From: Candidatus Niyogibacteria bacterium
GTDB taxonomy: Bacteria > Patescibacteriota > Minisyncoccia > JACROR01
NCBI GenBank assembly: GCA_016186495.1
Contig: JACPLO010000010.1
Location: 26,905 to 90,904, forward strand
Reading direction: 5' to 3'
DNA: 64,000 bases
Below the pieces are notes generated by a model that saw only the letters and a list, made by a program, of their open reading frames with translations, did not search any database and was not told where the DNA came from. Positions 2,495 through 63,855 of this stretch are shown piece after piece; position 1 is the first letter of the stretch, and every line of letters begins with the position of its first letter. Made by a program: the position numbers and the translations under genes.

Positions 2495-5269
2495 ATGAAT
2501 CAATTTTCAAACAAAAATTCAAAAACGCGAAAAATCTTAGCCGGAATTTTGCTTTTGATAATTTTATTTTCCGCAAGCTCTTTTTATCCGCGCCAAGCTA
2601 AAGCTGAAACGCCGGTCGCCGATTGGTTTATGAGAATCACTTCTGCATCCGGTTGGGCGTCAGCTATCGCTAATTATGCCAAAGAAGCGGCTGAAAAAGC
2701 GGCTAATATCGCGACCGCGACCTTCCGAAAAATGATTTTGGATATGATTGTGGATGAAATAATCGCCTGGATTTCCGGCGAAGGAACTTCGACTTTTGAC
2801 ACCGGCGATTGGGGGCAATTTTTTGATAAAGCGGCCCAGCAAGCCGGCGGCATATCCTTGGAAGAAATAACCGGGCCGGCTATAATGCAGCAGCTTTGCG
2901 ACGCTGATTGGGCCGGCCAAGTTCGGCTCGCTCTCCAAACTCCTAAAAAATTTGCCCAAAAAGCCCGCTGCACTCTTAGAGACATCGGCGTGAATTTTGA
3001 CGCTTTTATGGATAATTTTGAAAACGGCGGCTGGGCCGCCTGGATTAAAATTTCCGAAAGCCAAAACAATCCTTATGGCTATTTTCTTTCCGCGGTTAAT
3101 GAAAAACTAGCAAAAGAAACGCAGAAAAAACTGGGACTGGAAAAAGAGCTTACCGCTTCCGGCGGATTTTTAAGCGATAAAGTTTGCCGTAAAATATCCT
3201 GCCAAACGCGTTTGAAAATTGCGGGAACACAAGAAGCCGAATATAAAGAAGAAACGGGAAAATGGAAAGAAGATGAAATACCTATAAAAGACGGGACACC
3301 GTGCACTTGCGAAAAATGGGAAACCCTCACCCCAGGCAAGACAATGGCGGATTCTTTAAGCAAAACTGTTTTTAAAGATGTTGACTGGCTGAATGAAAAT
3401 TCAGAATGGTATAATTACGTGGTGGCGATCGGCGACGCGATTGTCAACCGGCTGACTAAAGAAGGGGTAAAAGCCATAAAATCCGCGGTCCCGCGAGGTT
3501 TGCCCACCTCTGTTTCTCAAGGCGTTACCGGCAAGGTTGATTACACGCCTCCTTTAACCTCGGCTAAAATTATTGATGTTTGGCAGGTAAAATTAACCGC
3601 CAATGAACCGGGAGACACTTATTACACTCTTGACGGAACAAAACCGCGCGTTCGCGCTTCTCCTAAATACAACGGTAAAGCGCTGACTATTATCAGCTCC
3701 ACCGCTCCGGGCGCAGCCACGGCCCAGTTAAAATGGCTTAGCGTGGATGACGCTTTCAATACCGAAGATCCGCGCAGCCTGCCGGTTTTTCTGCGCAGCC
3801 CTTTTAATTATTCAACTTTAACCGCTTATCTGGCCAGCCAAGACATCAGCATTCCCGAAAGCATCAAAGAAGCGCTGATAAAATTCTTCCGCGACGAAGA
3901 AAACGGAAAAGAAGCCGCAAAAATCGCCAAGGAAACTTTTATTCCCGCGAATATCCGCGAAGATTTAAAAAACTATCTGAAAATAGAAGATTTAAGAATC
4001 CAGTTAGGCAAAGAGTCTTTAATTAATCCGATCCAACGCAGCCAATTAGACGCTATTTTGGCGACTTACGAAGATTTTAATTCCGCTAATGACGGAAAGC
4101 TTACTGATCTCATTAATGTTTTAATAAAAATAAAAGAAGCGGGAATTAAAGCGTTTATTGACATTCAAACTCATGCCGAAGAAATCAAAGACCGGCGAAA
4201 TAATTTACAATCAATTCTCTCTTATCTCAACGGAGTAATCGCCAGCCTTGAAATATGTTCAAAAGCCCAGGCCGCGGCCGTTATTCGGGAAGGAGAAACA
4301 GCCGAAGAATTCGCCGTCAGAATAGCCGTTGAATCCAGCGCTTGCCAAAAAAACGCCAAAGCCGGCGCTTTTCCCGTTAATCTCAACGGCTTATCCTCGG
4401 GCTTAGCAACGGATCCGCTCTTTTCCGAGCTTAAAGATAAAACAGATAAAATAATTTTGGAACGTTCTTTATTCACGATTGATCCGGCCGGCAATTGGAG
4501 CAAACCTTCCGCCGCGCTCGCGCCAACGGATTCCGGACACGCGGCGATTCTTTCATTTAATCCTTTAACCGACAAACCCACGGCGATTTTCTTTAAACAA
4601 TCATCTTGGGAGACGGCAAATGATCGCAGCGCCGCAGTATCACTTCGTTTTAATAATCAAATTAACGGCTTTTATTATAAACAAGCTTTGGCTGTTCCGT
4701 CCGCAGTGAGTTCCGGCGGCACTGAAATCTGGTATGGAGCGATTGACGCGGCCGGCAATTGGACGGAAGAAAAAACGACTCAAGAATTTAACGCGGATTT
4801 TACCGATCTCCCTCCGCTCACTGATTTTGTCAAGCCAATCGCGGAAATTAAAAATCCGGTTAAAGGAAGTGACGGATATTTTATCTTAGACCCTTCGCTT
4901 TCCGTTGATTTTGACAGCACGCCGCGGATTAGCGGCTATGAATGGGATTTTATTAATAACCGCGGCGCTACGACAACAACCCAATCGCTCCAATATGAAT
5001 GGGAAGCTTTTGATTTAAACCGCGACGGCATTTTTACCGAAAACAACCAATGCCTTTATAATTTTTATTTAAATAATAATGAGGGAACGGTCGTCACCGG
5101 TATGGCTGGTTCAGACACATATTACGTGAACAACGACAACACCCGAGCAGTATCCGGCAGCTTAAGTCAAAAATATTATGACGCGGCTCATAGCTCGCCT
5201 TACAATAAAGCTCCCAATACAAGGCCGTTATATCTCAATCTGCAGCCAACCTGCCTAAAAAACAAATAA
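2495..5269 (+). CDS. large secreted/cell-surface protein (signal peptide; chitobiase/hexosaminidase-C-like YYTLDGTKP motif; Ig/PKD-like C-terminal regions); possible -1 frameshift extension to 5532
   Basis: 924-aa ORF, N-terminal signal/TM segment; downstream frame (5209-5532) encodes a PKD-like segment with no start codon and overlaps a slippery A AAA AAC at the stop. Confidence 0.55.
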   Translation: MNQFSNKNSKTRKILAGILLLIILFSASSFYPRQAKAETPVADWFMRITSASGWASAIANYAKEAAEKAANIATATFRKMILDMIVDEIIAWISGEGTSTFDTGDWGQFFDKAAQQAGGISLEEITGPAIMQQLCDADWAGQVRLALQTPKKFAQKARCTLRDIGVNFDAFMDNFENGGWAAWIKISESQNNPYGYFLSAVNEKLAKETQKKLGLEKELTASGGFLSDKVCRKISCQTRLKIAGTQEAEYKEETGKWKEDEIPIKDGTPCTCEKWETLTPGKTMADSLSKTVFKDVDWLNENSEWYNYVVAIGDAIVNRLTKEGVKAIKSAVPRGLPTSVSQGVTGKVDYTPPLTSAKIIDVWQVKLTANEPGDTYYTLDGTKPRVRASPKYNGKALTIISSTAPGAATAQLKWLSVDDAFNTEDPRSLPVFLRSPFNYSTLTAYLASQDISIPESIKEALIKFFRDEENGKEAAKIAKETFIPANIREDLKNYLKIEDLRIQLGKESLINPIQRSQLDAILATYEDFNSANDGKLTDLINVLIKIKEAGIKAFIDIQTHAEEIKDRRNNLQSILSYLNGVIASLEICSKAQAAAVIREGETAEEFAVRIAVESSACQKNAKAGAFPVNLNGLSSGLATDPLFSELKDKTDKIILERSLFTIDPAGNWSKPSAALAPTDSGHAAILSFNPLTDKPTAIFFKQSSWETANDRSAAVSLRFNNQINGFYYKQALAVPSAVSSGGTEIWYGAIDAAGNWTEEKTTQEFNADFTDLPPLTDFVKPIAEIKNPVKGSDGYFILDPSLSVDFDSTPRISGYEWDFINNRGATTTTQSLQYEWEAFDLNRDGIFTENNQCLYNFYLNNNEGTVVTGMAGSDTYYVNNDNTRAVSGSLSQKYYDAAHSSPYNKAPNTRPLYLNLQPTCLKNK

Positions 5270-8126: not shown

Positions 8127-8534
8127 ATGCAATATCAAGTTCCCCAATTTACCGAGGTTGAAGATAAAATTTTCGGGCCCCTGACTTTCAAACAGTTCGT
8201 TTATATTCTGGGCGCCGCGGCTTCCGCTTTTCTTTTTTGGCGCCTTTTGCCTAAATGGCTGGCTGTTCTTTTAATCGTTCCGATCAGCGGATTTTTTCTG
8301 GCGCTGGCTTTTTTAAAAATCAACGGCCAGCCTCTGCTTAAAGTTTTAACCAGCGCTCTTAATTTTTCCATCGGCAGCCGGCTTTATATCTGGAAAAAAA
8401 CCGAAGAAAAACCATTAGAAAAAAAAGAGGAGACGCTCGCCGAAAAAGAAGCGCTGGCTCTGCCCAAACTTACGGAAAGCAAATTAAAAGAGCTGGCGTG
8501 GAGTTTGGACATCCACCAAAAATTAAAACGTTAA
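8127..8534 (+). CDS. PrgI/VirB3-like small membrane protein
   Basis: 135 aa; KIFGPLTFKQFVYILGAAASAFLFW motif typical of the PrgI family, followed by two TM helices; sits immediately upstream of VirB4. Confidence 0.5.
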   Translation: MQYQVPQFTEVEDKIFGPLTFKQFVYILGAAASAFLFWRLLPKWLAVLLIVPISGFFLALAFLKINGQPLLKVLTSALNFSIGSRLYIWKKTEEKPLEKKEETLAEKEALALPKLTESKLKELAWSLDIHQKLKR

Positions 8535-8538
8535 TTCA

Positions 8539-9174
8539 ATGAAATCTAACCCCAGCCAACAATTAATTCCCATTTCGGAAATTCGCGACGACGTCGTTAT
8601 TCTGAAAGACGGCTCTTTCAGAATGATTTTAATGGCTTCTTCCATTAATTTTTCCCTTAAATCTCTGGAAGAACAAAAAGCGATTATTTCCCAATACCAG
8701 TACTTCCTGAATACTTTGGATTTTTCCGTCCAATTTCTCATCCATTCCGCTTCTTTGGATATTAATCCTTATCTGACGATGCTGAAAGAAAAAGAAAAAA
8801 CGCAGACCAATGAACTTTTAAAAATCCAAACGCGGGAATATTCGGAATTCATTAAAAACTTCATTGAAACGAATAAAATAATGTCCAAGACTTTTTATGT
8901 CGCCGTTTCTTATACCGCCGCGGTTGTTCCCGCTGCCGGCGGCCTCTTGGAAAGTTTTAAAAAATTAACCGGCCAGAAAGAAAAAAGCTCGGAGTCGGAG
9001 GAAAAATTTTTGGAACATAAAAACCAGCTCTGGCAAAGAATAGACGCGGTCACCGAGGGCCTGGCGCGCTGCGGCGTGCGCACTGTTCCGCTGAAAACCG
9101 AGGAATTGATTGAATTATTTTATCAGCTTTACAATCCCGGCGAAACCGCAGAAGGAATAGCGCTTAAAACATAA
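8539..9174 (+). CDS. VirB4/TraE-family N-terminal domain (split from the ATPase domain)
   Basis: IPISEIRDDVVILKDGSFRMILMASSINFSLKSLEEQKAIISQYQYFLNTLDFSVQFLIHS resembles the CagE/TrbE/VirB4 N-terminus; stop TAA at 9172-9174, next ATG at 9176 in the +1 frame. Confidence 0.55.
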   Translation: MKSNPSQQLIPISEIRDDVVILKDGSFRMILMASSINFSLKSLEEQKAIISQYQYFLNTLDFSVQFLIHSASLDINPYLTMLKEKEKTQTNELLKIQTREYSEFIKNFIETNKIMSKTFYVAVSYTAAVVPAAGGLLESFKKLTGQKEKSSESEEKFLEHKNQLWQRIDAVTEGLARCGVRTVPLKTEELIELFYQLYNPGETAEGIALKT

Positions 9175-22991: not shown

Positions 22992-23073
22992 ATCCCGTTA
23001 GAAAGTTCGCAATTTATGTCAAAAGAGACTAAAAAATTAAAAATAGAATCAATTAAGGTTCTTTCAACGGGAT
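22992..23073. mobile_element. MITE-like element, CCGTTAGAAA family (copy 1)
   Basis: ATCCCGTTAGAAAG at the left end, CTTTCAACGGGAT at the right (imperfect TIR); flanking GATAAATC-like direct duplication; intergenic. Confidence 0.55.
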
Positions 23074-25974: not shown

Positions 25975-26180
25975 AATCCGGTTGTTATTATTCAGCGATT
26001 ATTTAGTTAGCGCTTTAAAGTCTCTAGGCGATATTCCGTTTTTAACGGAATTGGGATTTTCTTTAAAGGGCAATTTGGCGCCATGTTTTACATGGAGAGC
26101 TGGACTGTTTCTTTGGGATGATTCTATCTTATGGTTTTAATCATTTAGTATATTGCCTAGAGACTTAAACGCGTTATCCG

Positions 26181-26352
26181 CCTATTGCCTCGTGCCATTC
26201 GGCACATCGGCAATTTTTTGCTTTCAGCGAAAATCGGATAAAAAACAAAGCAGTTTGCTTTTTACCACCTATTGCCTCGTGCCATTCGGCACATCGGCAA
26301 TTTTTTGCTTTCAGCAAAAATCAGATAAAAAGCAAAGCAGTTTGCTTTTTAT
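26181..26352. repeat. 2 x 87-bp tandem repeat, each unit with two hairpins (GTGCCATTCGGCAC; AAAAAGCAAAGCAGTTTGCTTTTT)
   Basis: units 26181-26267 and 26268-26352 differ at ~5 positions; shares the CAAAGCAGTTTG hairpin core with the 159-bp tRNA-Leu-associated repeats. Confidence 0.7.
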
Positions 26353-29629: not shown

Positions 29630-32017
29630 ATGAAAGAAAAAAAACAAAATATTCTTGTTTTACTTGACGCTCACGCCATTCTTCACCGCGCTTTTCACGC
29701 TTTGCCGGCTTTCACTTCGCCCAACGGGGAGCTGACCGGCGCGCTTTACGGCTTTGCGGCCATGCTTTTGAAAATTATCCGCGAGTTTAAACCGGATTAC
29801 CTGGCGGCTTGCTATGATTTGCCCGTGCCCACTTTCCGCCATATTGCTTACGAGAAATATAAAGGAAAAAGGCCAAAAATGGATGAAGGCCTGGCAATTC
29901 AAATCAACCGCTCGCGCGATATTTTAAAAGTTTTTGGGATTCCTATTTATGACGCGCCGGGTTTTGAAGCGGACGATGTTCTCGGCACAATCACGAAACA
30001 AGCAAATGATCCGAAACTCAAGATTATTGTCGCTTCCGGCGATTTGGATACGCTTCAATTGGTGCGAGGCAAAGATGTTGTCGTTTATACTCTCAAAAAA
30101 GGCATTCAAGACGCGATTGTTTACGATGAGGAAGGAGTAAAGGAGCGATTCGGTTTTTTACCGAAGTTTTTACCGGATTTTAAGGGCCTGAAAGGGGATC
30201 CTTCGGATAATATTTTAGGCATACCCGGCATCGGCGATAAAGGCGCGGCCGAGCTTATTCAAAAATTCGGCGGTTTGGAAGAAATCTACCGGTTTTTAGA
30301 AAAAAACGAAAAGAAATTTTTAGCCGCGGGCTTTAAACCGAGAATCGTAAAATTATTAAAAGAACACAAAGAAGAAGCGTTTTTTTCAAAAGAATTAGCC
30401 GTGATCCGGCGGGATGTGCCGATAAAATTCAGATGGCCGGATTTGGTTTGGAAAAAAAAATACCGTTTTTCTGAAGCGGAAAAACTTTTTCAAGAACTCG
30501 GCTTTAAAAGTTTGCGCGAGCGCTTGCCCGGCCAAAAATCCGCTGGCCAAGATAATTTTTCGTTAAAGGAAATTTCTTCCAAACAGCTTAAAAAGCTGCA
30601 GGTGGCCGCCTGGCTTCTGGATTCCCGCCGCGTTAACAAATCATTGGAAGATATTCTGGAAATTATCGGCGTTCGGTCAGTCAAGGAAGTTGAAAAAATT
30701 TTAGAAGAAAAAATCAAAAAAGAAAACTTGAAAGATTTTTTTGAAAAAACAGAATTGCCGTTAATGGATATTTTGGAGGAAATGCAAAAAACCGGCGTTT
30801 TGATAGACAGCGTTGTTTTGAAGAAACTTTCTTTAAAATACGAAAAAGAAATTACGGGTTTGAAAAAAAAGATTTGGGATTTGGCGGGCCAGGAATTTAA
30901 CGTCAGTTCTCCCCGCCAGCTGGGCGTTATTCTTTTTGATAAGCTGAAAATTTCCGTTAAAAGCATAAAAAAAACCGGCGGCGGCGGCTGGTCCACCGGC
31001 TTTTTGGAGCTTCAAAAATTGCGGCCGCTCCATCCGATCATTGATCTGATTTTAAAACATCGCGAATTGGCAAAATTAAAGACCACTTATTTAGACGCTT
31101 TGCCGAAATTAGCGGATAAAAATTCGCGTCTTCACACCACTTTTAATCAAGCCGGGACAATGACCGGGCGTTTTTCTTCGCAAAATCCGAATTTGCAGAA
31201 TATTCCCGTAAAAAACGAACGCGGAAAAGAGATAAGAAGAGCTTTTATCGCGCCGGCCGGCTGGGTTTTTTTGGCGGCGGATTATTCCCAAATTGAACTG
31301 CGCATTGCCGCTCTTCTTTCCGGGGATAAAATTATGACCGATGCTTTTTTAAAAGGAGATGACATTCATTCCGCCACGGCTTCGGCGATTTTTAACGTTT
31401 CGCCGGATAAAGTGACGGCGCAAATGCGGCGGCAGGCCAAAGTGATAAATTTTGGAATTTTATACGGGATGGGAGTCAGGTCTTTGGCTCAAAATTTAGG
31501 CGTGGCTAAAGAAGAAGCGCAGAAATTTTACGATGAGTATTTCAGCGATTTTTCCGGCATTCGCGAATATATTGAAAAAATAAAAGAGAAAGCCAAGGAA
31601 GACGGCTTTGTTGAGACTTTGTTCGGCCGAAAGCGTTATTTTCCCGAACTTCAAAATTTGCCGCCGTATCTTCATCATGAATTTTTGCGGATGGCGGTGA
31701 ATACTCCGATTCAAGGCACTGCCGCGGATTTTATGAAAATAGCCATGGTGGCGGCGGATCAGGCGATTAAAAAAGATTCTATTTTGCGGGATAAAGTGAA
31801 AATGGTTTTACAAATTCACGACGAACTTTTATTTGAAGTGAAAAAAGAAGTTTTGCCAAAAGCCGCCGAATTGATTAAAAAAGAAATGGAAGGAGTGTCT
31901 AAAAACAAAATTCCTTTTCCGGCGGATATCAGCGCCGGCCCCAATTGGGCGGAAATGAATCCCGTTAGAGATTGCGAGGGCTCACAGCATAAAATCTCTA
32001 ACGGGATGAAAAAATAA
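29630..32017 (+). CDS. polA: DNA polymerase I (5' nuclease + polymerase; reduced proofreading region)
   Basis: 795 aa; motif A DYSQIELR, motif B RRQAKVINFGILYGM, motif C QIHDELLFE; last ~19 aa (NPVRDCEGSQHKISNGMKK) are encoded by an inserted CCGTTAGAGA repeat copy. Confidence 0.9.
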   Translation: MKEKKQNILVLLDAHAILHRAFHALPAFTSPNGELTGALYGFAAMLLKIIREFKPDYLAACYDLPVPTFRHIAYEKYKGKRPKMDEGLAIQINRSRDILKVFGIPIYDAPGFEADDVLGTITKQANDPKLKIIVASGDLDTLQLVRGKDVVVYTLKKGIQDAIVYDEEGVKERFGFLPKFLPDFKGLKGDPSDNILGIPGIGDKGAAELIQKFGGLEEIYRFLEKNEKKFLAAGFKPRIVKLLKEHKEEAFFSKELAVIRRDVPIKFRWPDLVWKKKYRFSEAEKLFQELGFKSLRERLPGQKSAGQDNFSLKEISSKQLKKLQVAAWLLDSRRVNKSLEDILEIIGVRSVKEVEKILEEKIKKENLKDFFEKTELPLMDILEEMQKTGVLIDSVVLKKLSLKYEKEITGLKKKIWDLAGQEFNVSSPRQLGVILFDKLKISVKSIKKTGGGGWSTGFLELQKLRPLHPIIDLILKHRELAKLKTTYLDALPKLADKNSRLHTTFNQAGTMTGRFSSQNPNLQNIPVKNERGKEIRRAFIAPAGWVFLAADYSQIELRIAALLSGDKIMTDAFLKGDDIHSATASAIFNVSPDKVTAQMRRQAKVINFGILYGMGVRSLAQNLGVAKEEAQKFYDEYFSDFSGIREYIEKIKEKAKEDGFVETLFGRKRYFPELQNLPPYLHHEFLRMAVNTPIQGTAADFMKIAMVAADQAIKKDSILRDKVKMVLQIHDELLFEVKKEVLPKAAELIKKEMEGVSKNKIPFPADISAGPNWAEMNPVRDCEGSQHKISNGMKK
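31959..32007. mobile_element. MITE-like element, CCGTTAGA family (short 49-bp copy) inside the 3' end of polA
   Basis: ATCCCGTTAGAGATT ... AATCTCTAACGGGAT perfect inverted repeat; flanked by ATGAAT-like duplication. Confidence 0.55.
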
Positions 32018-33220: not shown

Positions 33221-33255
33221 CCCCGTTAAATTTGCTTCGTAACTATTTAACGGGG
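33221..33255. repeat. 35-bp hairpin CCCCGTTAAAT...ATTTAACGGGG (variant of the CCGTTAGAAA inverted-repeat motif) just upstream of gpmI
   Basis: perfect 11-bp arms read directly. Confidence 0.5.
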
Positions 33256-36262: not shown

Positions 36263-36637
36263 GTTAAAAATTTAAAATTACTTGAATCTCCGATATTTTT
36301 ATAGTAAACTTTTTTTTATGGCAAACAATGTTTAATTTGTGGAAAAGGGTCGCGGATGGGGGGTAAAAGAAATCTTTTGCGCGGAAAATATAATCCTACT
36401 CCTAAAAAACGAAAATATCCCAATCTTCAGTGGGCGAGTTTTCCGGCTGGCGGCAGGATAAAAATTTGCACCCGTTGTCTCAAGAAAAATAAACTGCTTT
36501 ATTTTTCTTCCGATTCTTTGCAAAGCAAAAAAATTGCCAGTATGCCGAAGGCGCGAAGCAATAAGGAACAGAATCTCCATCTCAAAAAAACGGCTGTAAA
36601 ATAACCGTTTTTTGAGATAATAGTAAATAATAAATAT

Positions 36638-36810
36638 CGGGCCATAGTATAATGGCAGTACGCAAGGCTGGCTTTTCAAGTAATTTATCGGGATGTCGTA
36701 TAGTGGCAGTACGCATGCATGGGGTGCATGCAGTCCGAGTTCGATTCTCGGCATCCCGACCAATTACTTGAAAAGTTGCAACTTGGGTTCAATTCCCAGT
36801 GGCCCGACCA
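36638..36810 (+). other. tRNA-like outer halves (acceptor CGGGCCA/TGGCCCG-ACCA; D-arm and T-arm intact) separated by a 13-bp stem enclosing tRNA-Pro
   Basis: 5' part CGGGCCATAGTATAATGGCAGTACG... and 3' part ...TTGGGTTCAATTCCCAGTGGCCCGACCA; CTTTTCAAGTAAT (36672-36684) pairs with ATTACTTGAAAAG (36765-36777). Confidence 0.5.
36689..36762 (+). tRNA. tRNA-Pro (anticodon GGG), encoded CCA
   Basis: CGGGATG acceptor / CATCCCG-A-CCA; anticodon stem CATGC, loop ATGGGGT; T-arm CCGAG-TTCGATT-CTCGG. Confidence 0.75.
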
Positions 36811-36986
36811 TTCAAAATTAAATCAGATTAGAGAAAATCGCGAAGAAAAATGCCTTAAAATCGGCGATTCGTATTTGAATTTAACGCCGCTGATTTTATT
36901 TTTTTGTTTAATCAGCCGCGCGAAGGATTCAACCACATAATCAAAATGTTCTTTGTTGTAGACGCGGCGCGGAATGGCAAGGCGCA
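36805..36986. repeat. 182-bp direct repeat, copy 1 (starts in the tRNA 3' end; carries an orphan copy of the tryptophanase 3' end)
   Basis: ~98% identical to 38690-38871 (3 mismatches). Confidence 0.85.
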
Positions 36987-37244
36987 TTTCTTTGTTTCCT
37001 TTCTTAATTCGATTATTCTTTCTTTAATCCTGATCGGTGTTTCTCTGGGATTAGTTTTTGGCCTCTTTGATTTATTTTCCAGCCCTTCCAATCCGCTTTT
37101 TCTGTAATCAACCAACCAGTATTTAAGCGACCTTTCTGAAAAAGGACACACTCTGACCATATTCTTAATTGATATTTCTTTGTCTAATATCGGTTTAATC
37201 CATCTAAATTTTTCTTCTTTTGTTGATTTGGGCATAGTTTTCAT
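36912..37244 (-). pseudogene. transposase N-terminal HTH fragment (IS481/IS3-type), DDE domain absent
   Basis: FSERSLKYWLVDYRKSGLEGLENKSKRPKTNP resembles transposase HTH; ORF runs out into the direct repeat, no catalytic domain. Confidence 0.4.
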
Positions 37245-37300
37245 ATGCCCTTAGATTATTCAAAAAAGTGCAATATGTGTGTGTAGATTACCGCAAGCAC

Positions 37301-37329
37301 TTGACTTGTGGCAAAAAATAAACTATAAT
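37301..37329 (+). promoter_or_regulatory. consensus sigma70-type promoter (TTGACT - 17 bp - TATAAT)
   Basis: read directly; followed by SD GGAGGTG (37365-37371) 6 nt before ATG 37378. Confidence 0.6.
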
Positions 37330-37377
37330 ACGACGAGCATTTATCGAACCTTAAAAACCTCGATTGGAGGTGATCAC

Positions 37378-38415
37378 ATGAAGCAAACCAAAACTCTACT
37401 TCGAGTGCTATTGTCCCTTCTCATATTAGAGTCCGCGTTCGCAATTCACGAATACGGTCATCTAAGAGAGTTCCAGAAACGCGGCGTCCCTGTCAAGGAG
37501 TTTTCACTCGGGATCGGTCCCAGCATGTACCAATACCAAACTGATTCTTCGCTAACTGTAAGTTTCCGACTCATACCGATAATGGCGTATGTCGCGCCAA
37601 CGGAAGAGGGCGGAAACTTGTTTAAGAAGCAAGGATCGCTTTGGAACAAAATCGCTGTCGATTTGGCTGGAGTGCGTAATAACTTCTTGGTTGGCTTGGC
37701 CATCATACTCTTTCTGCAAATTCTTGGTTGGAGAAGAGGAAATCTCTCCGCAAAGGAACTCGCAGGAACAGCGATGGTTACGCCGTTCAAGATTCCGCTC
37801 CGCTTCGTCGCATTCCTCGTCGGATGCGTGACGTGGGGTCGCATCAACCTGGCGGAGAAATTTCTTCTCTCAACGGGGGGCATCGATCCGCCTAAGCCGC
37901 TCAAATCGCTCATCCTTTGGAACTTGACGCTTGGTCTTTTCAATCTTGCGCCAATTCCTCCACTTGACGGCGGTCACGCGCTAGAAGCTGTCTTACTCTC
38001 GGCAGGAACTAGCATCTACATATCAGAGATTCCGAAGTTTGTGGGCGTTATCCTTTTTGCCGTATATTGCACGACTGCTGGCAATCAGGATATGCGCGTG
38101 CTTGAAGTTGAACCAAGAAGCGACTCCGTGGAATCAAGAAGGGGCACAACGAAAAGAAGATCAAGCGGGGCGCTTGGCCGTTGGGAAGAAGAGGGAGAAG
38201 AAGCCCCCAGCTTCTTTTTGGTCCGGAGGATCACCCACACACATCTTCCGACTCGTGTCAGGAATATTCTCGAAGACTCCAGTATCTGCACGATTGGCGA
38301 ACTGCGGGAAACTACCGCAAGCCAGTTATTGCAGATCAAGGGTTTTGGTCTGAAATCTCTGGAAGCTGTCGAAAAACTTTTACGAGATAAAGGGCTATCC
38401 CTAAAACCGGAGTGA
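37378..38415 (+). CDS. chimeric ORF: RseP/M50-like N-terminal fragment fused to an RNA polymerase alpha-CTD-like HhH domain
   Basis: HEYGHL HExxH + NLAPIPPLDGGH (M50); C-terminal LPTRVRNILEDSSICTIGELRETTASQLLQIKGFGLKSLEAVEKLLRDKGLSL matches the alpha-CTD pattern; GC-rich; track ORF starts 37279 but the RBS-supported start is 37378. Confidence 0.5.
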   Translation: MKQTKTLLRVLLSLLILESAFAIHEYGHLREFQKRGVPVKEFSLGIGPSMYQYQTDSSLTVSFRLIPIMAYVAPTEEGGNLFKKQGSLWNKIAVDLAGVRNNFLVGLAIILFLQILGWRRGNLSAKELAGTAMVTPFKIPLRFVAFLVGCVTWGRINLAEKFLLSTGGIDPPKPLKSLILWNLTLGLFNLAPIPPLDGGHALEAVLLSAGTSIYISEIPKFVGVILFAVYCTTAGNQDMRVLEVEPRSDSVESRRGTTKRRSSGALGRWEEEGEEAPSFFLVRRITHTHLPTRVRNILEDSSICTIGELRETTASQLLQIKGFGLKSLEAVEKLLRDKGLSLKPE

Positions 38416-38689: not shown

Positions 38690-38871
38690 CGACCATTCAA
38701 AATTAAATCAGATTAGAGAAAATCGCGAAGAAAAATGCCTTAAAATCGGAGATTCGTATTTGAATTTAACGCCGCTGATTTTATTTTTTTGTTTGATCAG
38801 CCGCGCGAAGGATTCAACCACATAATCAAAATGTTCTTTGTTGTAGACGCGGCGCGGAATGGCCAGGCGCA
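38690..38871. repeat. 182-bp direct repeat, copy 2 (contains the functional 3' end of the tryptophanase gene)
   Basis: matches 36805-36986. Confidence 0.85.
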
Positions 38872-40078: not shown

Positions 40079-41344
40079 TTAATTTAATTTGAGGTTGCCG
40101 TCGGCTTTGAGGGTATTGATATTTTTAACAAATATTTTTTTAAGCGCTTTCAGGCAGCCAACCGCGGCGATCATCGCCGCGTTATCTCCGGCAAATTGGA
40201 TTTCCGGCAGGCGAAGCAATATTTTTGGAAATTTTTTGTTTAATTCTTTTTTAATCTGCTTTCTTAATTCTTGATTAGCGGCCACGCCGCCGCCAAGAAT
40301 GATGGTTTTTGGTTTATATTTCTGGGCGGCTTTTAAGGTTTTAGCGATTAAAACATCAACTGCCGCTTGCTGGAATTCTCGGCAGATTTGAGCTTTTATT
40401 TCGGGCGTTAATTCGGGTAATTTTCTGACAAGATATAAAACTGCGGTTTTTAAACCGGAAAAACTGAAATCAAAATCGCGGGAATCAATCATCGGCCTCG
40501 GCAATTTGATTTGAGGCTGAAGTAATTCTGATTTAGAAATCGCGGTTTTTGCTAAAGCAGAAACCGCGGGTCCGCCGGGATAACCTAATCCTAAAAGTTT
40601 AGCTGTTTTGTCAAAAGCCTCGCCAGCCGCGTCGTCTCGCGTCCGGCCGATCACTTTATATTTAAGAAATTGCTTCATTAAAACCAGTTCCGTATGCCCG
40701 CCGCTGATCAAAAGCGCCAGGGCGGGGAAAGAAATTAAAAATTCTTGTTTGTTCAAGAAAACGGATAAAATATGCCCTTCCAGATGATTGGCCGCGATCA
40801 GCGGTTTTTCCCAGATTAAAGCAAGGGCTTTGGCAAAATTCACTCCGGTCCAAAGCGCGGGCTCAAGTCCCGGTCCGCTGGTTACGGCAATCGCGTCTAT
40901 TTTAGGTTTTTTAATTTTTGAAATCTCTTTAAAAAACTTTTTTAACAATTCTGGTTCGCGTTTTAATATTTTGTTTATGTTATTTTCAGTTTGTTTAGAG
41001 ATTAAAAATTGAGAATTAGAAATCAATAAATTTGATTTCTTTAATGCTTTTTTTAGAACAAGGATTAAATTTGCCTGATGTTCTCTTTTGGCAAGCGACG
41101 GCACTACGCCGCCCCAGGGCGCGTGGATTTTTATCTGTGAAGAAACGATATTGGCTAAAATTTTGAAACGCGGGTTTTTAAAATTGCCCTTTGCTTCTAA
41201 AATTGCCGCTCCGGTTTCATCGCATGATGTTTCAATGGCGAGAATTTTTATCCCGTTAGAAAGTCTTTTTGTTTGGCTTTCTTGCCCAACAATTTTTTTC
41301 TTAACATAATTAGTTGTCTTTCTAACGGGATTTATTCTTTTCAT
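40079..41344 (-). CDS. tsaD: tRNA N6-adenosine threonylcarbamoyltransferase TsaD
   Basis: ILAIETSCDETGAAIL..., HxxGH metal site (HLEGH); annotated N-terminal ~35 aa are encoded by an inserted repeat (41250-41331), true start uncertain. Confidence 0.85.
   Translation of the reverse strand: MKRINPVRKTTNYVKKKIVGQESQTKRLSNGIKILAIETSCDETGAAILEAKGNFKNPRFKILANIVSSQIKIHAPWGGVVPSLAKREHQANLILVLKKALKKSNLLISNSQFLISKQTENNINKILKREPELLKKFFKEISKIKKPKIDAIAVTSGPGLEPALWTGVNFAKALALIWEKPLIAANHLEGHILSVFLNKQEFLISFPALALLISGGHTELVLMKQFLKYKVIGRTRDDAAGEAFDKTAKLLGLGYPGGPAVSALAKTAISKSELLQPQIKLPRPMIDSRDFDFSFSGLKTAVLYLVRKLPELTPEIKAQICREFQQAAVDVLIAKTLKAAQKYKPKTIILGGGVAANQELRKQIKKELNKKFPKILLRLPEIQFAGDNAAMIAAVGCLKALKKIFVKNINTLKADGNLKLN
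41250..41331. mobile_element. MITE-like element, CCGTTAGAAA family (copy inside annotated 5' end of tsaD)
   Basis: ATCCCGTTAGAAAGTC ... GTCTTTCTAACGGGAT inverted repeat (1 mismatch). Confidence 0.55.
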
Positions 41345-41476: not shown

Positions 41477-41496
41477 TGCGAAATAATTGTTTGTTT

Positions 41497-41551
41497 CGGA
41501 CGCGAGTAAATTACTTTACTCGTATCGGGATTTGAAATCCCGCTAGGGTCA
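41497..41551 (+). repeat. hairpin + degenerate copy of the tRNA-Glu 3' end (CGGGATTTGAAATCCCGCTAGGGTCA)
   Basis: CGAGTAAATTACTTTACTCG hairpin, then 26 nt matching the T-arm/acceptor 3' strand of the upstream tRNA-Glu. Confidence 0.6.
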
Positions 41552-41590
41552 ATTGTTTTGCCTTTTTTGCGCCTTTAGCTTAATGGCAGA

Positions 41591-41791
41591 GCGTTCTCTT
41601 GCCCCGTTAGAAACCAATACGCGCGGTTAGCTCAGTGGTAGAGCATTCGCTTGACGTGCGAAGGGTCATAGGTTCAAATCCTATACCGCGCACCGCAAGT
41701 TTCTAACGGGGTGAATGCAAAAGGCTGTAGGTCTGTCCCGTAGCCAGACGAAGTCTGTGGTACTGGGATTCAATCCCTACAAGGCGCACAC
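41591..41791 (+). other. tRNA-like outer halves (GCGCCTT...D-arm... / ...GGGATTCAATCCC-TACAAGGCGC-ACA) flanking an inverted-repeat-enclosed tRNA-Val
   Basis: 5' GCGCCTTTAGCTTAATGGCAGAGCG (acceptor + D-arm) and 3' AAGGCGC perfectly complementary acceptor strand; inner IR CCCCGTTAGAAACC (41602-41615) / GTTTCTAACGGGG (41699-41711). Confidence 0.4.
41621..41694 (+). tRNA. tRNA-Val (anticodon GAC)
   Basis: GCGCGGT acceptor, TAGCTCAGTGGTAGAGC D-arm, loop TTGACGT, T-arm GGTTCAAATCC, ACCGCGC-A-CC. Confidence 0.8.
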
Positions 41792-49984: not shown

Positions 49985-50056
49985 GCGCGCTTAGCTCAGT
50001 GGTAGAGCATCGCTTTTACACAGCGAGGGCCGGGGGTTCAATCCCCTCAGCGCGCA
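49985..50056 (+). tRNA. tRNA-Val (anticodon TAC)
   Basis: GCGCGCT acceptor, TAGCTCAGTGGTAGAGC, loop TTTACAC, GGTTCAATCC, AGCGCGC-A. Confidence 0.75.
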
Positions 50057-50328
50057 AAAAAATGAATGAAGTGAATTTTTGAGTGCGTTGAGCAAGCCAA
50101 CTGCTTGGCTTGCGCAGGGGATTGAAAAAATTTTCTATATCGCGAAGCGATAGAAAATTAGCGCCCTGCAAGGGCAATCCCCTCAGCGCGCAAAAAAATG
50201 AATGAAGTGAATTTTTGAGTGCGTTGAGCAAGCCAACTGCTTGGCTTGCGCAGGGGATTGAAAAAATTTTCTATATCGCAAAGCGATAGAAAATTAGCGC
50301 CCTGCAAGGGCAATCCCCTCAGCGCGCA
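50057..50328. repeat. 2 x 136-bp tandem repeat downstream of tRNA-Val(TAC), each unit ending with a copy of the tRNA 3' end (CAATCCCCTCAGCGCGCA)
   Basis: units 50057-50192 and 50193-50328 nearly identical; internal hairpins TTTCTATATCGC-GAA-GCGATAGAAA and GCAAGCCAA-CTG-CTTGGCTTGC; also an inverted partial copy GCGCAGGGGATTG. Confidence 0.8.
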
Positions 50329-53286: not shown

Positions 53287-53363
53287 ATTATAATTGTTAG
53301 TTATAAATTTTTGTTGTAGGTTATAAAAAACGCCCGGGTGGCAAAATTTGCCCCCACGTTAAT

Positions 53364-53456
53364 GCCGCGGTGGCGGAATTGGTATACGCGCACGACTTAA
53401 AATCGTGTCACTTTTTGTGATGAGGGTTCGACCCCCTCCCGCGGCATTAATGTAGG
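53364..53456 (+). tRNA. tRNA-Leu (anticodon TAA), long variable arm
   Basis: GCCGCGG acceptor; loop CTTAAAA; variable arm TCACTTTTTGTGATG; GGGTTCGACCCCC; CCGCGGC-A. Confidence 0.8.
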
Positions 53457-53495
53457 GGTGAATATCCGCACAACATTTATAATTCAAAACAATTT

Positions 53496-59664: not shown

Positions 59665-59772
59665 ATCCCGTTAGAAATCAAAACCTTAAAATGTTATTTA
59701 GACCAATAAAATGTTTTATTATTAACCACAGCAGTTTTTAGAAATTTCTAAAGGAACTATTTCTAACGGGAT
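59665..59772. mobile_element. MITE-like element, CCGTTAGAAA family (108-bp copy)
   Basis: ATCCCGTTAGAAAT ... ATTTCTAACGGGAT perfect inverted repeat; ATGAATC-like flanking duplication; intergenic between the Clp-like ATPase and uvrA. Confidence 0.6.
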
Positions 59773-63693: not shown

Positions 63694-63773
63694 ATCCCGT
63701 TAGAAAGTTAATAATAATTTTATGTTGAAAATATTTAATTATTATAATTTGCAAAGCGAGCTTTCTAACGGGG
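63694..63773. mobile_element. MITE-like element, CCGTTAGAAA family (80-bp copy)
   Basis: ATCCCGTTAGAAAGTT ... AGCTTTCTAACGGGG inverted repeat; intergenic upstream of groES. Confidence 0.55.
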
Positions 63774-63855
63774 TTGACAGAGTTTTTAATTTGTCTAAAA
63801 TACTTACATTAGCAATCTTTGGTCAAGACTGCTAAATCTAAATTTTATTTGAATT

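Follow-up and report, generated by a model that had tools for sequence, protein, structure and literature searches.

The stretch of DNA analysed here, referred to as the window, covers 64,000 nucleotides (nt) from Candidatus Niyogibacteria bacterium (Patescibacteriota; contig JACPLO010000010.1, positions 26,905 to 90,904 of the forward strand). It features two composite loci, in which a complete transfer RNA (tRNA) gene is enclosed by a pair of complementary arms and, together with them, lies between the two halves of a second tRNA. Such an arrangement is called here a nest; the split tRNA-Pro at locus 1 is indicated as outer #1, the split tRNA-Val at locus 2 as outer #2. Coordinates refer to the window, unless a related or viral sequence, designated by "L" and a number, is named; all parts of the two loci are on the forward strand. 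The window encodes PolA, the DNA polymerase III delta subunit, ClpP, TsaD, IF-2, MurB and HtrA, and its relatives are Patescibacteria metagenome-assembled genomes. A phage origin of the window was considered and rejected: megablast against known phages matched only tRNA-His, and the gene content is chromosomal.

Locus 1 contains a tRNA-Pro(GGG) gene, placed between arms forming 13 perfect base pairs (bp), within a second tRNA with intact acceptor, D and T arms. These components had been described in an earlier, sequence-only reading of the locus, and all were found at the coordinates claimed. The 5' half of outer #1 (36638-36671) corresponds to a former tRNA-Pro(GGG) up to nt 35 of the anticodon loop: it includes the acceptor strand CGGGCCA (36638-44), whose partner is TGGCCCG at 36800-06, the D arm GTATAATGGCAGTAC (36647-61) and, at 36662-71, a G followed by the anticodon-stem strand CAAGG and the loop residues CTGG. 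The left arm CTTTTCAAGTAAT (36672-84) and a 4-nt spacer or leader, TTAT (36685-88), precede the inner tRNA-Pro(GGG) (36689-36762), which has an encoded CCA, is called by ARAGORN, scores 55 bits with Rfam RF00005 and is presumed to be the functional gene. The right arm ATTACTTGAAAAG (36763-75) abuts this CCA directly. The 3' half of outer #1 (36776-36810) starts with TTG and CAAC (36776-82), and continues with the T arm TTGGG-TTCAATT-CCCAG (36783-99) and the acceptor strand TGGCCCG, followed by A and CCA (36800-10). The perfect 13-bp helix around tRNA-Pro, which had also been proposed from the sequence, is therefore confirmed; it reaches 14 bp when T36685-A36762 is counted. Arms, spacer and inner tRNA sum up to an insert of 104 nt, and arms plus acceptor stem make a nearly continuous 27-nt inverted repeat. 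Upstream of outer #1, a terminator-like hairpin (36590-36613) and, after it, a -10-like box, GAGATAAT (36614-36621), may be read from the sequence. The box, which is homologous to the GATATAAT box found upstream of un-nested tRNA-Pro genes in the relatives L050-L052, is the likely promoter of a composite transcript; it was not called by a simple promoter scan, and promoter and terminator scans were uninformative.

The arrangement had been reported to recur at 41591-41791: the recurrence was confirmed, while the span has to be corrected, since the composite extends from 41569 to 41788. The layout is the same as in locus 1, with a tRNA-Val(GAC) inside an outer tRNA. The 5' half of outer #2 (41569-41601), once part of an "X-type" tRNA-Val(GAC) and reaching loop nt 34 (TTG), begins with the acceptor strand GCGCCTT (41569-75), pairing with AAGGCGC at 41781-87. 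It is followed by the left arm CCCCGTTAGAAAC (41602-14), a terminal inverted repeat of a palindromic element family described below, by the spacer CAATAC (41615-20), conserved in the relatives L040 and L032, by the inner tRNA-Val(GAC) (41621-41694; ARAGORN; Rfam 73 bits) and by the right arm GTTTCTAACGGGG (41699-711). The inner gene is of the type canonical for related genomes, and is 98.6% identical to the tRNA-Val(GAC) of L040 and L032. The insert, made of arms, spacers and inner tRNA, measures 110 nt. The 3' remnant of outer #2 (41712-41788) contains a decayed anticodon-stem strand and variable loop, the T stem strands GTAGG (41727-31) and CCTAC (41776-80), the T loop TTCAATC (41769-75), and the acceptor strand AAGGCGC (41781-87), followed by A. 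Between T stem and T loop, a second insertion is present (41732-41768), a 37-nt perfect hairpin, TCTGTCCCGTAGCCAGACGAAGTCTGTGGTACTGGGA, unique among the sequences compared. Remnants of a serial nesting were looked for outside outer #2, and none was seen.

When the composite loci are folded, the 13-bp helix is formed, with a bulge of 3-6 nt on the 5' side and 0-1 nt on the 3' side; the leader/trailer duplex counts 13 bp, or 16 if G-U pairs are included. Compared with shuffled sequence, the composite folds are far more stable (z = -6.2 and -4.7). An enclosing helix of 13 bp was obtained in none of 5000 shuffles of the flanks at either locus, the best ones being 10 and 11 bp, and none of 38 tRNAs in related loci has an enclosing stem longer than 7 bp. 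In a further control, each called tRNA was deleted together with 0-39 nt on each side, and ARAGORN was run again: a tRNA spanning the junction appeared in 3 of about 104 tRNA calls, namely the window Pro nest and two loci of relatives, L002 Val(gac) and L032 Val(tac). No canonical anticodon arm may be formed for the outer molecule at locus 1, in agreement with the sequence-only reading.

A check already suggested by that reading was a search for the uninterrupted outer tRNA in related genomes. Two sister lineages were compared, sharing the same gene neighbourhood, with neighbouring proteins about 88-90% identical, and at the corresponding chromosomal sites intact outer genes were found. An un-nested tRNA-Pro(GGG) is located in L040 and L049-L061 after an rpmB-like open reading frame (ORF), next to an M50 gene. 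Nucleotides 10-35 of this tRNA-Pro (GTATAATGGCAGTACGCAAGGCTGG) are identical, 25/25, to positions 36647-36671 of outer #1 (positions 10-34 of the half), which places the end of this half precisely behind nt 35 of the anticodon loop. The 3' half of outer #1 (36776-36810) has no homologue among the loci compared. At the same site, L050-L052 carry a different tRNA-Pro(GGG) allele, resembling the inner tRNA-Pro of the window and located behind a terminator hairpin and the GATATAAT box, homologous to window positions 36585-36621. Alleles of tRNA-Pro(GGG) differ greatly between genomes which are 88-90% related.

For locus 2, an intact tRNA-Val(GAC) is found in L050, after tRNA-Glu (c[3518-3589]): GCGCCTTTAGCTCAATGGCAGAGCGTTCGCTTGACGTGCGAAAGGCTGTAGGTTCAATCCCTACAAGGCGCA. 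The 5' half of outer #2 is 93.5% identical to it, and the last 20 nt are 100% identical. Outer #2 may be described as the L050 gene with two interruptions, the arms plus tRNA-Val after loop nt 34 and the 37-nt hairpin at 41732-68, absent from the L050 orthologue, and with a mutated anticodon stem and loop. In L040 and L032 the outer shell is reduced to a mutated 5' remnant, TGGCAGAGCGTTTACTTTTGTCTTATTAGAAACCAATAC, while the inner tRNA-Val is 98.6% conserved. At the level of sequence, these alignments identify both outers as former tRNA genes, split after nt 35 (Pro) or nt 34 (Val). They also show that the shell is dispensable and decays: L040 and L032 keep the inner tRNA with only a 5' remnant of it.

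The surroundings of locus 1 feature a 182-bp direct repeat (36805-36986 and 38690-38871; 98% identical), which begins within the 3'-terminal part of outer #1 and also takes in the 3' end of a beta-eliminating lyase gene. The two copies bracket an IS481-type fragment (36912-37244) and an ORF (37279-38415) coding for a fusion of M50 and RNA polymerase alpha C-terminal domain (alpha-CTD). In L040 the lyase gene is not present between tsaD and the point of the repeat.

Nests are not restricted to the window. Five of them, four Val and one Pro, are found in four genomes, and in all five the anticodon of the inner tRNA is identical to that of the outer one. L002, whose TsaD is 62% identical, carries at 8440-8627 (minus strand) a tRNA-Val(GAC) of the L050 type within another tRNA-Val(GAC), inserted after nt 38; the outer anticodon loop, TTGACAC, is still intact. 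The L050-type Val gene has the part of invader in L002, and in the window that of the gene invaded. In L032 (1296-1480) a tRNA-Val(TAC) is inserted after nt 35 of a tRNA-Val(TAC), orthologous to the un-nested tRNA-Val(TAC) of the window (49985-50056). In L033 (119-1, minus strand, at the contig end) a tRNA-Val(CAC) is inserted, again after nt 35, in a tRNA-Val(CAC), orthologous to the intact tRNA-Val(CAC) of L074 (10779-10853). The insertion point is 35/36 in three of the five nests. More distant relatives, in which the M50 neighbour is 68-74% identical, show a different synteny and no nests.

One further locus of the window, 53332-53460, is ambiguous. In its tRNA-Leu(TAA) (53363-53447) the acceptor stem is lengthened by leader and trailer, which add 13 bp with 2 mismatches; the arms, CCCCCACGTTAAT and ATTAATGTAGGGG, adjoin this stem and are similar to those of the palindromic family. 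Upstream of the gene, a 19-nt sequence, GCCCGGGTGGCAAAATTTG, is similar to the 5' end of an older tRNA-Leu. A decayed nest is a possible reading of this locus.

The arms of the Val nests belong to a dispersed palindromic family, with arm consensus ATCCCGTTAGAAA...TTTCTAACGGGAT, with which they share a conserved core of 9-13 nt. At least 6 copies with paired arms are found in the window, at 22992-23073, 31959-32007, 33221-33255, 41250-41331, 59665-59772 and 63694-63774; in relatives, copies are located in L032 (1841-1865 and 5808-5889), L040 (5036-5117), L049 (13033-13108) and L005 (17806-17929). The interiors between the arms, of about 2-106 nt, are unrelated. The arms co-vary: across 11 copies, 9 pairs are changed on both sides, a number reached by none of 500 shuffles. 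The arms of the L032 nest, TCCCGTTAGAGAT and ATCTCTAACGGGA, are homologous to the Val arms of the window, and each of the 3 differences is compensated in the partner arm.

Two copies interrupt protein genes, and for both an empty site is available. The copy at 31959-32007 lies at the end of the polA ORF (29630-32017), where it replaces the last PolA codons, in frame; L049 and L050 lack it. The copy at 41250-41331 is an in-frame insertion of 84 nt in the 5' end of tsaD (ORF 40079-41344, minus strand), which is likewise missing in L050 and in L049. It adds about 28 codons, which explains the 31 extra N-terminal residues, TsaD homologues aligning from residue ~32 onwards; the insertion is presumably translated. 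Splicing of the palindromic repeats from mRNA was considered and rejected, as removal of 82 nt from tsaD would shift the frame. Comparison of filled and empty sites indicates a 2-bp target duplication for both polA and tsaD. Similarly, the Val nest of the window reads T-TG, arms and tRNA, TG-AATGCAAA, where L050 has T-TG-ACGTGCGAA, consistent with a duplication of TG, followed by decay. Filled and empty sites in related genomes show the Val arms to be members of what may be called a polymorphic, mobile, palindromic repeat family, and the Val nests would therefore be palindromic elements having a tRNA as interior. A scan of viral contigs with the Val arm pattern gave 3 chance matches, with no tRNA between the arms.

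The interpretation which we regard as probable, if by no means certain, is that in each nest a former tRNA gene was split in the anticodon loop by a cassette of about 105-110 bp, carrying a tRNA with the same anticodon, which is now the working gene. The disruption of a tRNA gene by a tRNA-carrying element was one of three explanations offered by the sequence-only reading; intact genes in relatives and the polymorphism of the Val arm family speak in its favour, with two additions, the identity of the anticodons and the fact that the Pro arms were not found repeated in the sequences compared. In the cassette, one arm of 13 bp is followed by a short spacer and by a complete tRNA; then come a second short spacer, which the Pro tRNA lacks on its 3' side, and the complementary arm. 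The outer halves would be unable to decode, leaving the inner tRNA as the only functional copy. Transcription would start from the promoter of the old gene, ahead of the outer 5' half, so that the outers would act as leader and trailer. The arms would pair in the RNA, closing the inner tRNA as a folding domain of its own and preventing mispairing with the outer halves, whose D-arm and anticodon-stem sequences are nearly identical to its own. The inner tRNA would then be released by RNase P and by an activity processing the 3' end, and the outer halves would be discarded, being free to decay with time. As to the landing in a cognate gene, a capture anchored by homology, at a fragile palindrome within the gene, may be guessed; alternatively, or in addition, only those insertions that compensate for the broken gene may survive.

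Several observations weigh against this interpretation. As far as mobility is concerned, a clean target duplication is seen only at the Val nest of the window: in L032 CA is found with extra bases and an 11-nt loop, and at the L002 nest and the Pro nest the duplication is absent. For the latter, a duplication was tried and rejected, as it needs an assumed deletion of 10 nt. Neither the Pro arms nor the L002 arms form a repeat family among the sequences compared, and the label of mobile element is for this reason drawn from the Val nests only. Pfam and PHROG scans of neighbour genes revealed no transposase or recombinase gene adjoining any nest; the only transposase-like ORF near them is the IS481-type fragment at 36912-37244, a 110-residue N-terminal piece. 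Barring the ambiguous tRNA-Leu(taa) locus, no arm-flanked tRNA cassette was seen outside tRNA genes. Random transposition followed by selection would be expected to leave many such cassettes in the rest of the genome; since none was seen there, and five nests of five are cognate, random transposition cannot explain the pattern, and a step of targeting or capture is missing.

A second group of objections concerns locus 1. In outer #1 the acceptor, D and T stems are still perfect and CCA is present; with respect to the L040 orthologue, double changes compensating each other are found in its acceptor stem and in its T stem. Such a preservation is unlike that of a freely decaying pseudogene: either the resident allele was a different one, or a tRNA-like shape is under selection. 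The first option is in line with the finding that the Pro alleles of L040 and L050 differ as much as outer #1 and L040. Moreover, locus 1 is not confirmed in an independent assembly, as contigs reached via the M50 gene stop near 36512; searches via the helix-turn-helix and M50-alpha-CTD neighbours yielded no further assembly covering it. A repeat of about 83 nt is located at 36482-36563, 26174-26256 and 26259-26343, as well as in L032 (11-102); independent contigs of the window strain end beside the 36482-36563 copy, which is the probable cause of the missing locus 1.

The strictly cognate pattern would also fit a case in which no mobile element is involved, and the nests arose by recombination or repair between diverged tRNA alleles, through illegitimate recombination of incoming DNA, facilitated by homology, or template switching at hairpins, with the repeats made or perfected by quasi-palindrome correction. 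The inner alleles do match types resident at the same locus in sister lineages (L050 type for Pro, the canonical type for Val), the sharp differences between tRNA-Pro(GGG) alleles in genomes 88-90% related suggest a frequent turnover, and both the Pro and the L002 arms are unique sequences, the former making up, with the acceptor stem, the near-continuous 27-nt inverted repeat. The core of the Val arms, however, is shared with a dispersed family, so that these arms were not generated locally, and a simple homologous exchange would produce chimeric tRNAs rather than nests; we know of no documented process yielding the nest topology. This explanation is judged improbable.

An equally improbable one, in our judgement, is that of a functional processing scaffold, in which the helix would serve for RNase III-type recognition or insulation, and the outer halves would aid the inner tRNA or have a role of their own. 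It draws on the presence, at two loci, of perfect 13-bp helices with different sequences, on the co-variation of the arms, on the intact fold of outer #1, and on the leader/trailer helix of tRNA-Leu(taa) (53363-53447), also of 13 bp, although with two mismatches. Yet the same arms are found around AT-rich interiors other than tRNAs, in frame in tsaD and polA, and are polymorphic, which points to selfish DNA; sister lineages make the same tRNAs without a shell, or with a half-deleted one; and a duplex of 13-16 bp is short for RNase III. An RNase III-type stem, as had been proposed from the sequence, is compatible with the insertion of a tRNA cassette, where it would insulate or release the inner tRNA.

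The outer tRNA might also be a functional gene having another tRNA as intron, with RNase P and a 3' endonuclease excising the inner molecule and a ligase joining the outer halves. The preservation of outer #1 (perfect acceptor, D and T arms, CCA, compensated stem differences from the L040 orthologue) and the intact loop of the L002 outer would be expected in this case. The proposal, already contained in the sequence-only reading, was not supported at these loci by a number of tests. ARAGORN with intron settings (0-300 nt), a check which had been suggested along with it, did not call the outer tRNAs and saw only the inner ones. None of 1225 combinations of excision boundaries, exhaustively explored within 36655-36789, gave a tRNA-Pro; many lenient ARAGORN calls were obtained (Ala, Ser, Phe, Glu, Leu), which are uninformative on the anticodon. 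Excision of the inner tRNA would leave arms and spacers in the bacterial nests, while removal of arms and inner tRNA together results in loops of 11-13 nt in L032 and in a non-Val loop in the window. For group I introns, the Rfam RF00028 P3-P9 core, a length typically above 200 nt and a 7-nt loop restored upon excision were considered: Rfam, run over 35000-57000 at E<=1, matched only tRNAs at both loci, with no group I core. The bulge-helix-bulge motif of archaeal introns (3-nt bulge, 4-bp helix, 3-nt bulge) is absent on inspection of both folds, and no splicing endonuclease (EndA/Sen) with ligase was seen among the ORFs scanned in the 64-kb window. Transfer-messenger RNA (tmRNA) was likewise not found by ARAGORN, and the outers feature G3-C70, not G3-U70. 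Outer #2 is decayed and carries an insertion in the T loop, L040 and L032 have lost the shell and kept the inner tRNA, and a spliced outer would add nothing, its anticodon being the same as the inner one. For the bacterial nests, a tRNA acting as intron is accordingly considered very unlikely.

Further observations in favour of tRNAs as introns come from phages. Viral contigs were scanned for two D arms or two T loops so close to each other that separate tRNAs could not account for them; 102 matches were obtained with the D-arm pattern, some of which were inspected. Most matches are 5' tRNA fragments or tandem genes, but two are clean nests, arm-less and non-cognate. In L085 (6111-6260) nt 36 and 37 of a tRNA-Lys(UUU) are separated by precisely a tRNA-Asn(GTT) plus CCA, the exact removal of which produces a canonical tRNA-Lys of 75 nt. 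In L260 (~4975-5125) a tRNA-Phe(GAA) with CCC lies between nt 34 and 35 of a tRNA-Arg(UCU), and its removal again produces a canonical outer tRNA. A third phage nest, less clean, is located in L206 (~4995-5145); all three contigs are from IMG/VR. The exact mature-end boundaries suggest that in phage nests the inner tRNA may behave as an intron, excised by RNase P and RNase Z to leave a nick with 3'-OH and 5'-phosphate ends, which a ligase would seal. The 5' fragments are found in phage tRNA arrays of many IMG/VR loci (for example L113 5203-5265, L129 795-865, L135 1047-1107, L169 ~942): they consist of acceptor strand and D arm, for about 25-30 nt, with no matching 3' half, and are often placed 20-50 nt upstream of a complete tRNA.

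Finally, an assembly artefact, joining strain variants of a single tRNA locus, is hardly credible: no independent contig covers locus 1 and several assemblies break about 125 nt upstream of it, but an independent assembly of the same strain (L023) contains locus 2 with 100% identity, nests are also present in the unrelated assemblies L002, L032 and L033, and mis-joins do not make perfect, unique 13-bp inverted repeats.

Insertion of a tRNA cassette into a cognate gene may be compared with several known systems. Rickettsia palindromic elements (RPEs) insert in frame in protein genes, as well as in structural RNA genes, including once a tmRNA gene (PMC1458961). Like RPEs, Correia elements, REPINs and MITE-like sequences, the elements described here are small, non-coding, hairpin-forming and dispersed, are found in frame within genes, and occur in a reduced genome. 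Unlike RPEs and MITEs, only their arms, of 13-14 nt, are conserved, the interiors being unrelated; in the nests the interior is a complete tRNA, with the anticodon of the gene hit, a situation for which no report was found in the literature. Genomic islands and prophages integrate in tRNA and tmRNA genes and restore them (Islander-type; PMC4383910). They likewise split a tRNA, often in the anticodon or T-loop region, and the insert keeps the tRNA functional. Islands, however, measure kilobases, code for a tyrosine integrase and restore the gene with a copy of its 3' part, the displaced fragment forming a direct repeat, while nests contain a whole, independent tRNA and no protein within ~105-110 bp, and are flanked by both old halves. 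The signature of a tRNA-integrating island is accordingly absent: the insert has no ORF, and the flanks are two different gene halves.

Group I introns are known in the tRNA anticodon loops of Patescibacteria, including position 35/36 (PMC13011429). Phylum and anticodon-loop site are the same as for the nests, and in both cases the interrupted genes are missed by standard tRNA finders; nests differ by the lack of a core, by an insert of ~105 nt which is itself a tRNA, and by the absence of a precise excision restoring the outer gene. In archaeal disrupted tRNAs (bulge-helix-bulge introns, the split tRNAs of Nanoarchaeum, permuted tRNAs) halves are also joined by a helix of about 12-14 bp, and non-canonical sites are used, including the T loop, as in outer #2. 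Nests, in contrast, have a bacterial host and no bulge-helix-bulge, and their halves are in cis and in normal order, with a decaying outer gene.

No description of a tRNA nested in a cognate tRNA, or of palindromic elements carrying a tRNA, was found in the literature; a recent survey of tRNA introns in Patescibacteria covers only introns of groups I and II (PMC13011429). Rather than introns, nests seem to represent a mode of tRNA gene replacement not described before. The main interest lies in the strict cognate rule and in its recurrence. If the interpretation is correct, mobile DNA may become harmless within an essential, single-copy RNA gene without splicing, by providing a complete replacement gene, and a route would be available for the horizontal turnover of tRNA alleles in the very small genomes of Patescibacteria, such as those of Pro(GGG) and Val, which are sharply different in genomes 88-90% related. 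The palindromic family and the phage nests with exact boundaries, taken together, suggest that a tRNA could act as an intron of another tRNA. A wider proposal, doubtful in our opinion, is that nests are self-compensating, gene-specific, mobile tRNA cassettes of ~110 bp, protein-less and guided to the anticodon loop of the cognate gene by homology between cargo and target, which would produce, in repeated rounds, a "Russian-doll" turnover of alleles across Patescibacteria, and of which phage nests would be a related, spliceable form. As to annotation, standard finders see only the inner gene, and the outer halves mimic additional or "split" tRNAs, which may mislead tRNA censuses.

Other tRNA genes of the window are followed by repeated units of a different kind. 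After tRNA-Val(TAC), two tandem units of 136 nt (50057-50192 and 50193-50328) each end in the last ~21 nt of the tRNA. A 74-nt unit is located after tRNA-Glu (41478-41551), and one unit also after the tRNA-Glu of L050 (3754-3615, minus strand); both end in the last ~20 nt of the tRNA. Hairpins (tcaNgaagtga and gcaagccaactgcttggcttgc) and a T-arm copy in inverted orientation are common to these downstream units, which resemble either tyrT repeats or decayed integration sites. The tyrT-type repeats of E. coli end in the 3' end of a tRNA; units of this type are duplications of the 3' end, placed downstream of an intact gene, unlike the gene-in-gene arrangement of the nests. The 136-nt units show that tRNA loci are, in these genomes, hot spots of recombination.

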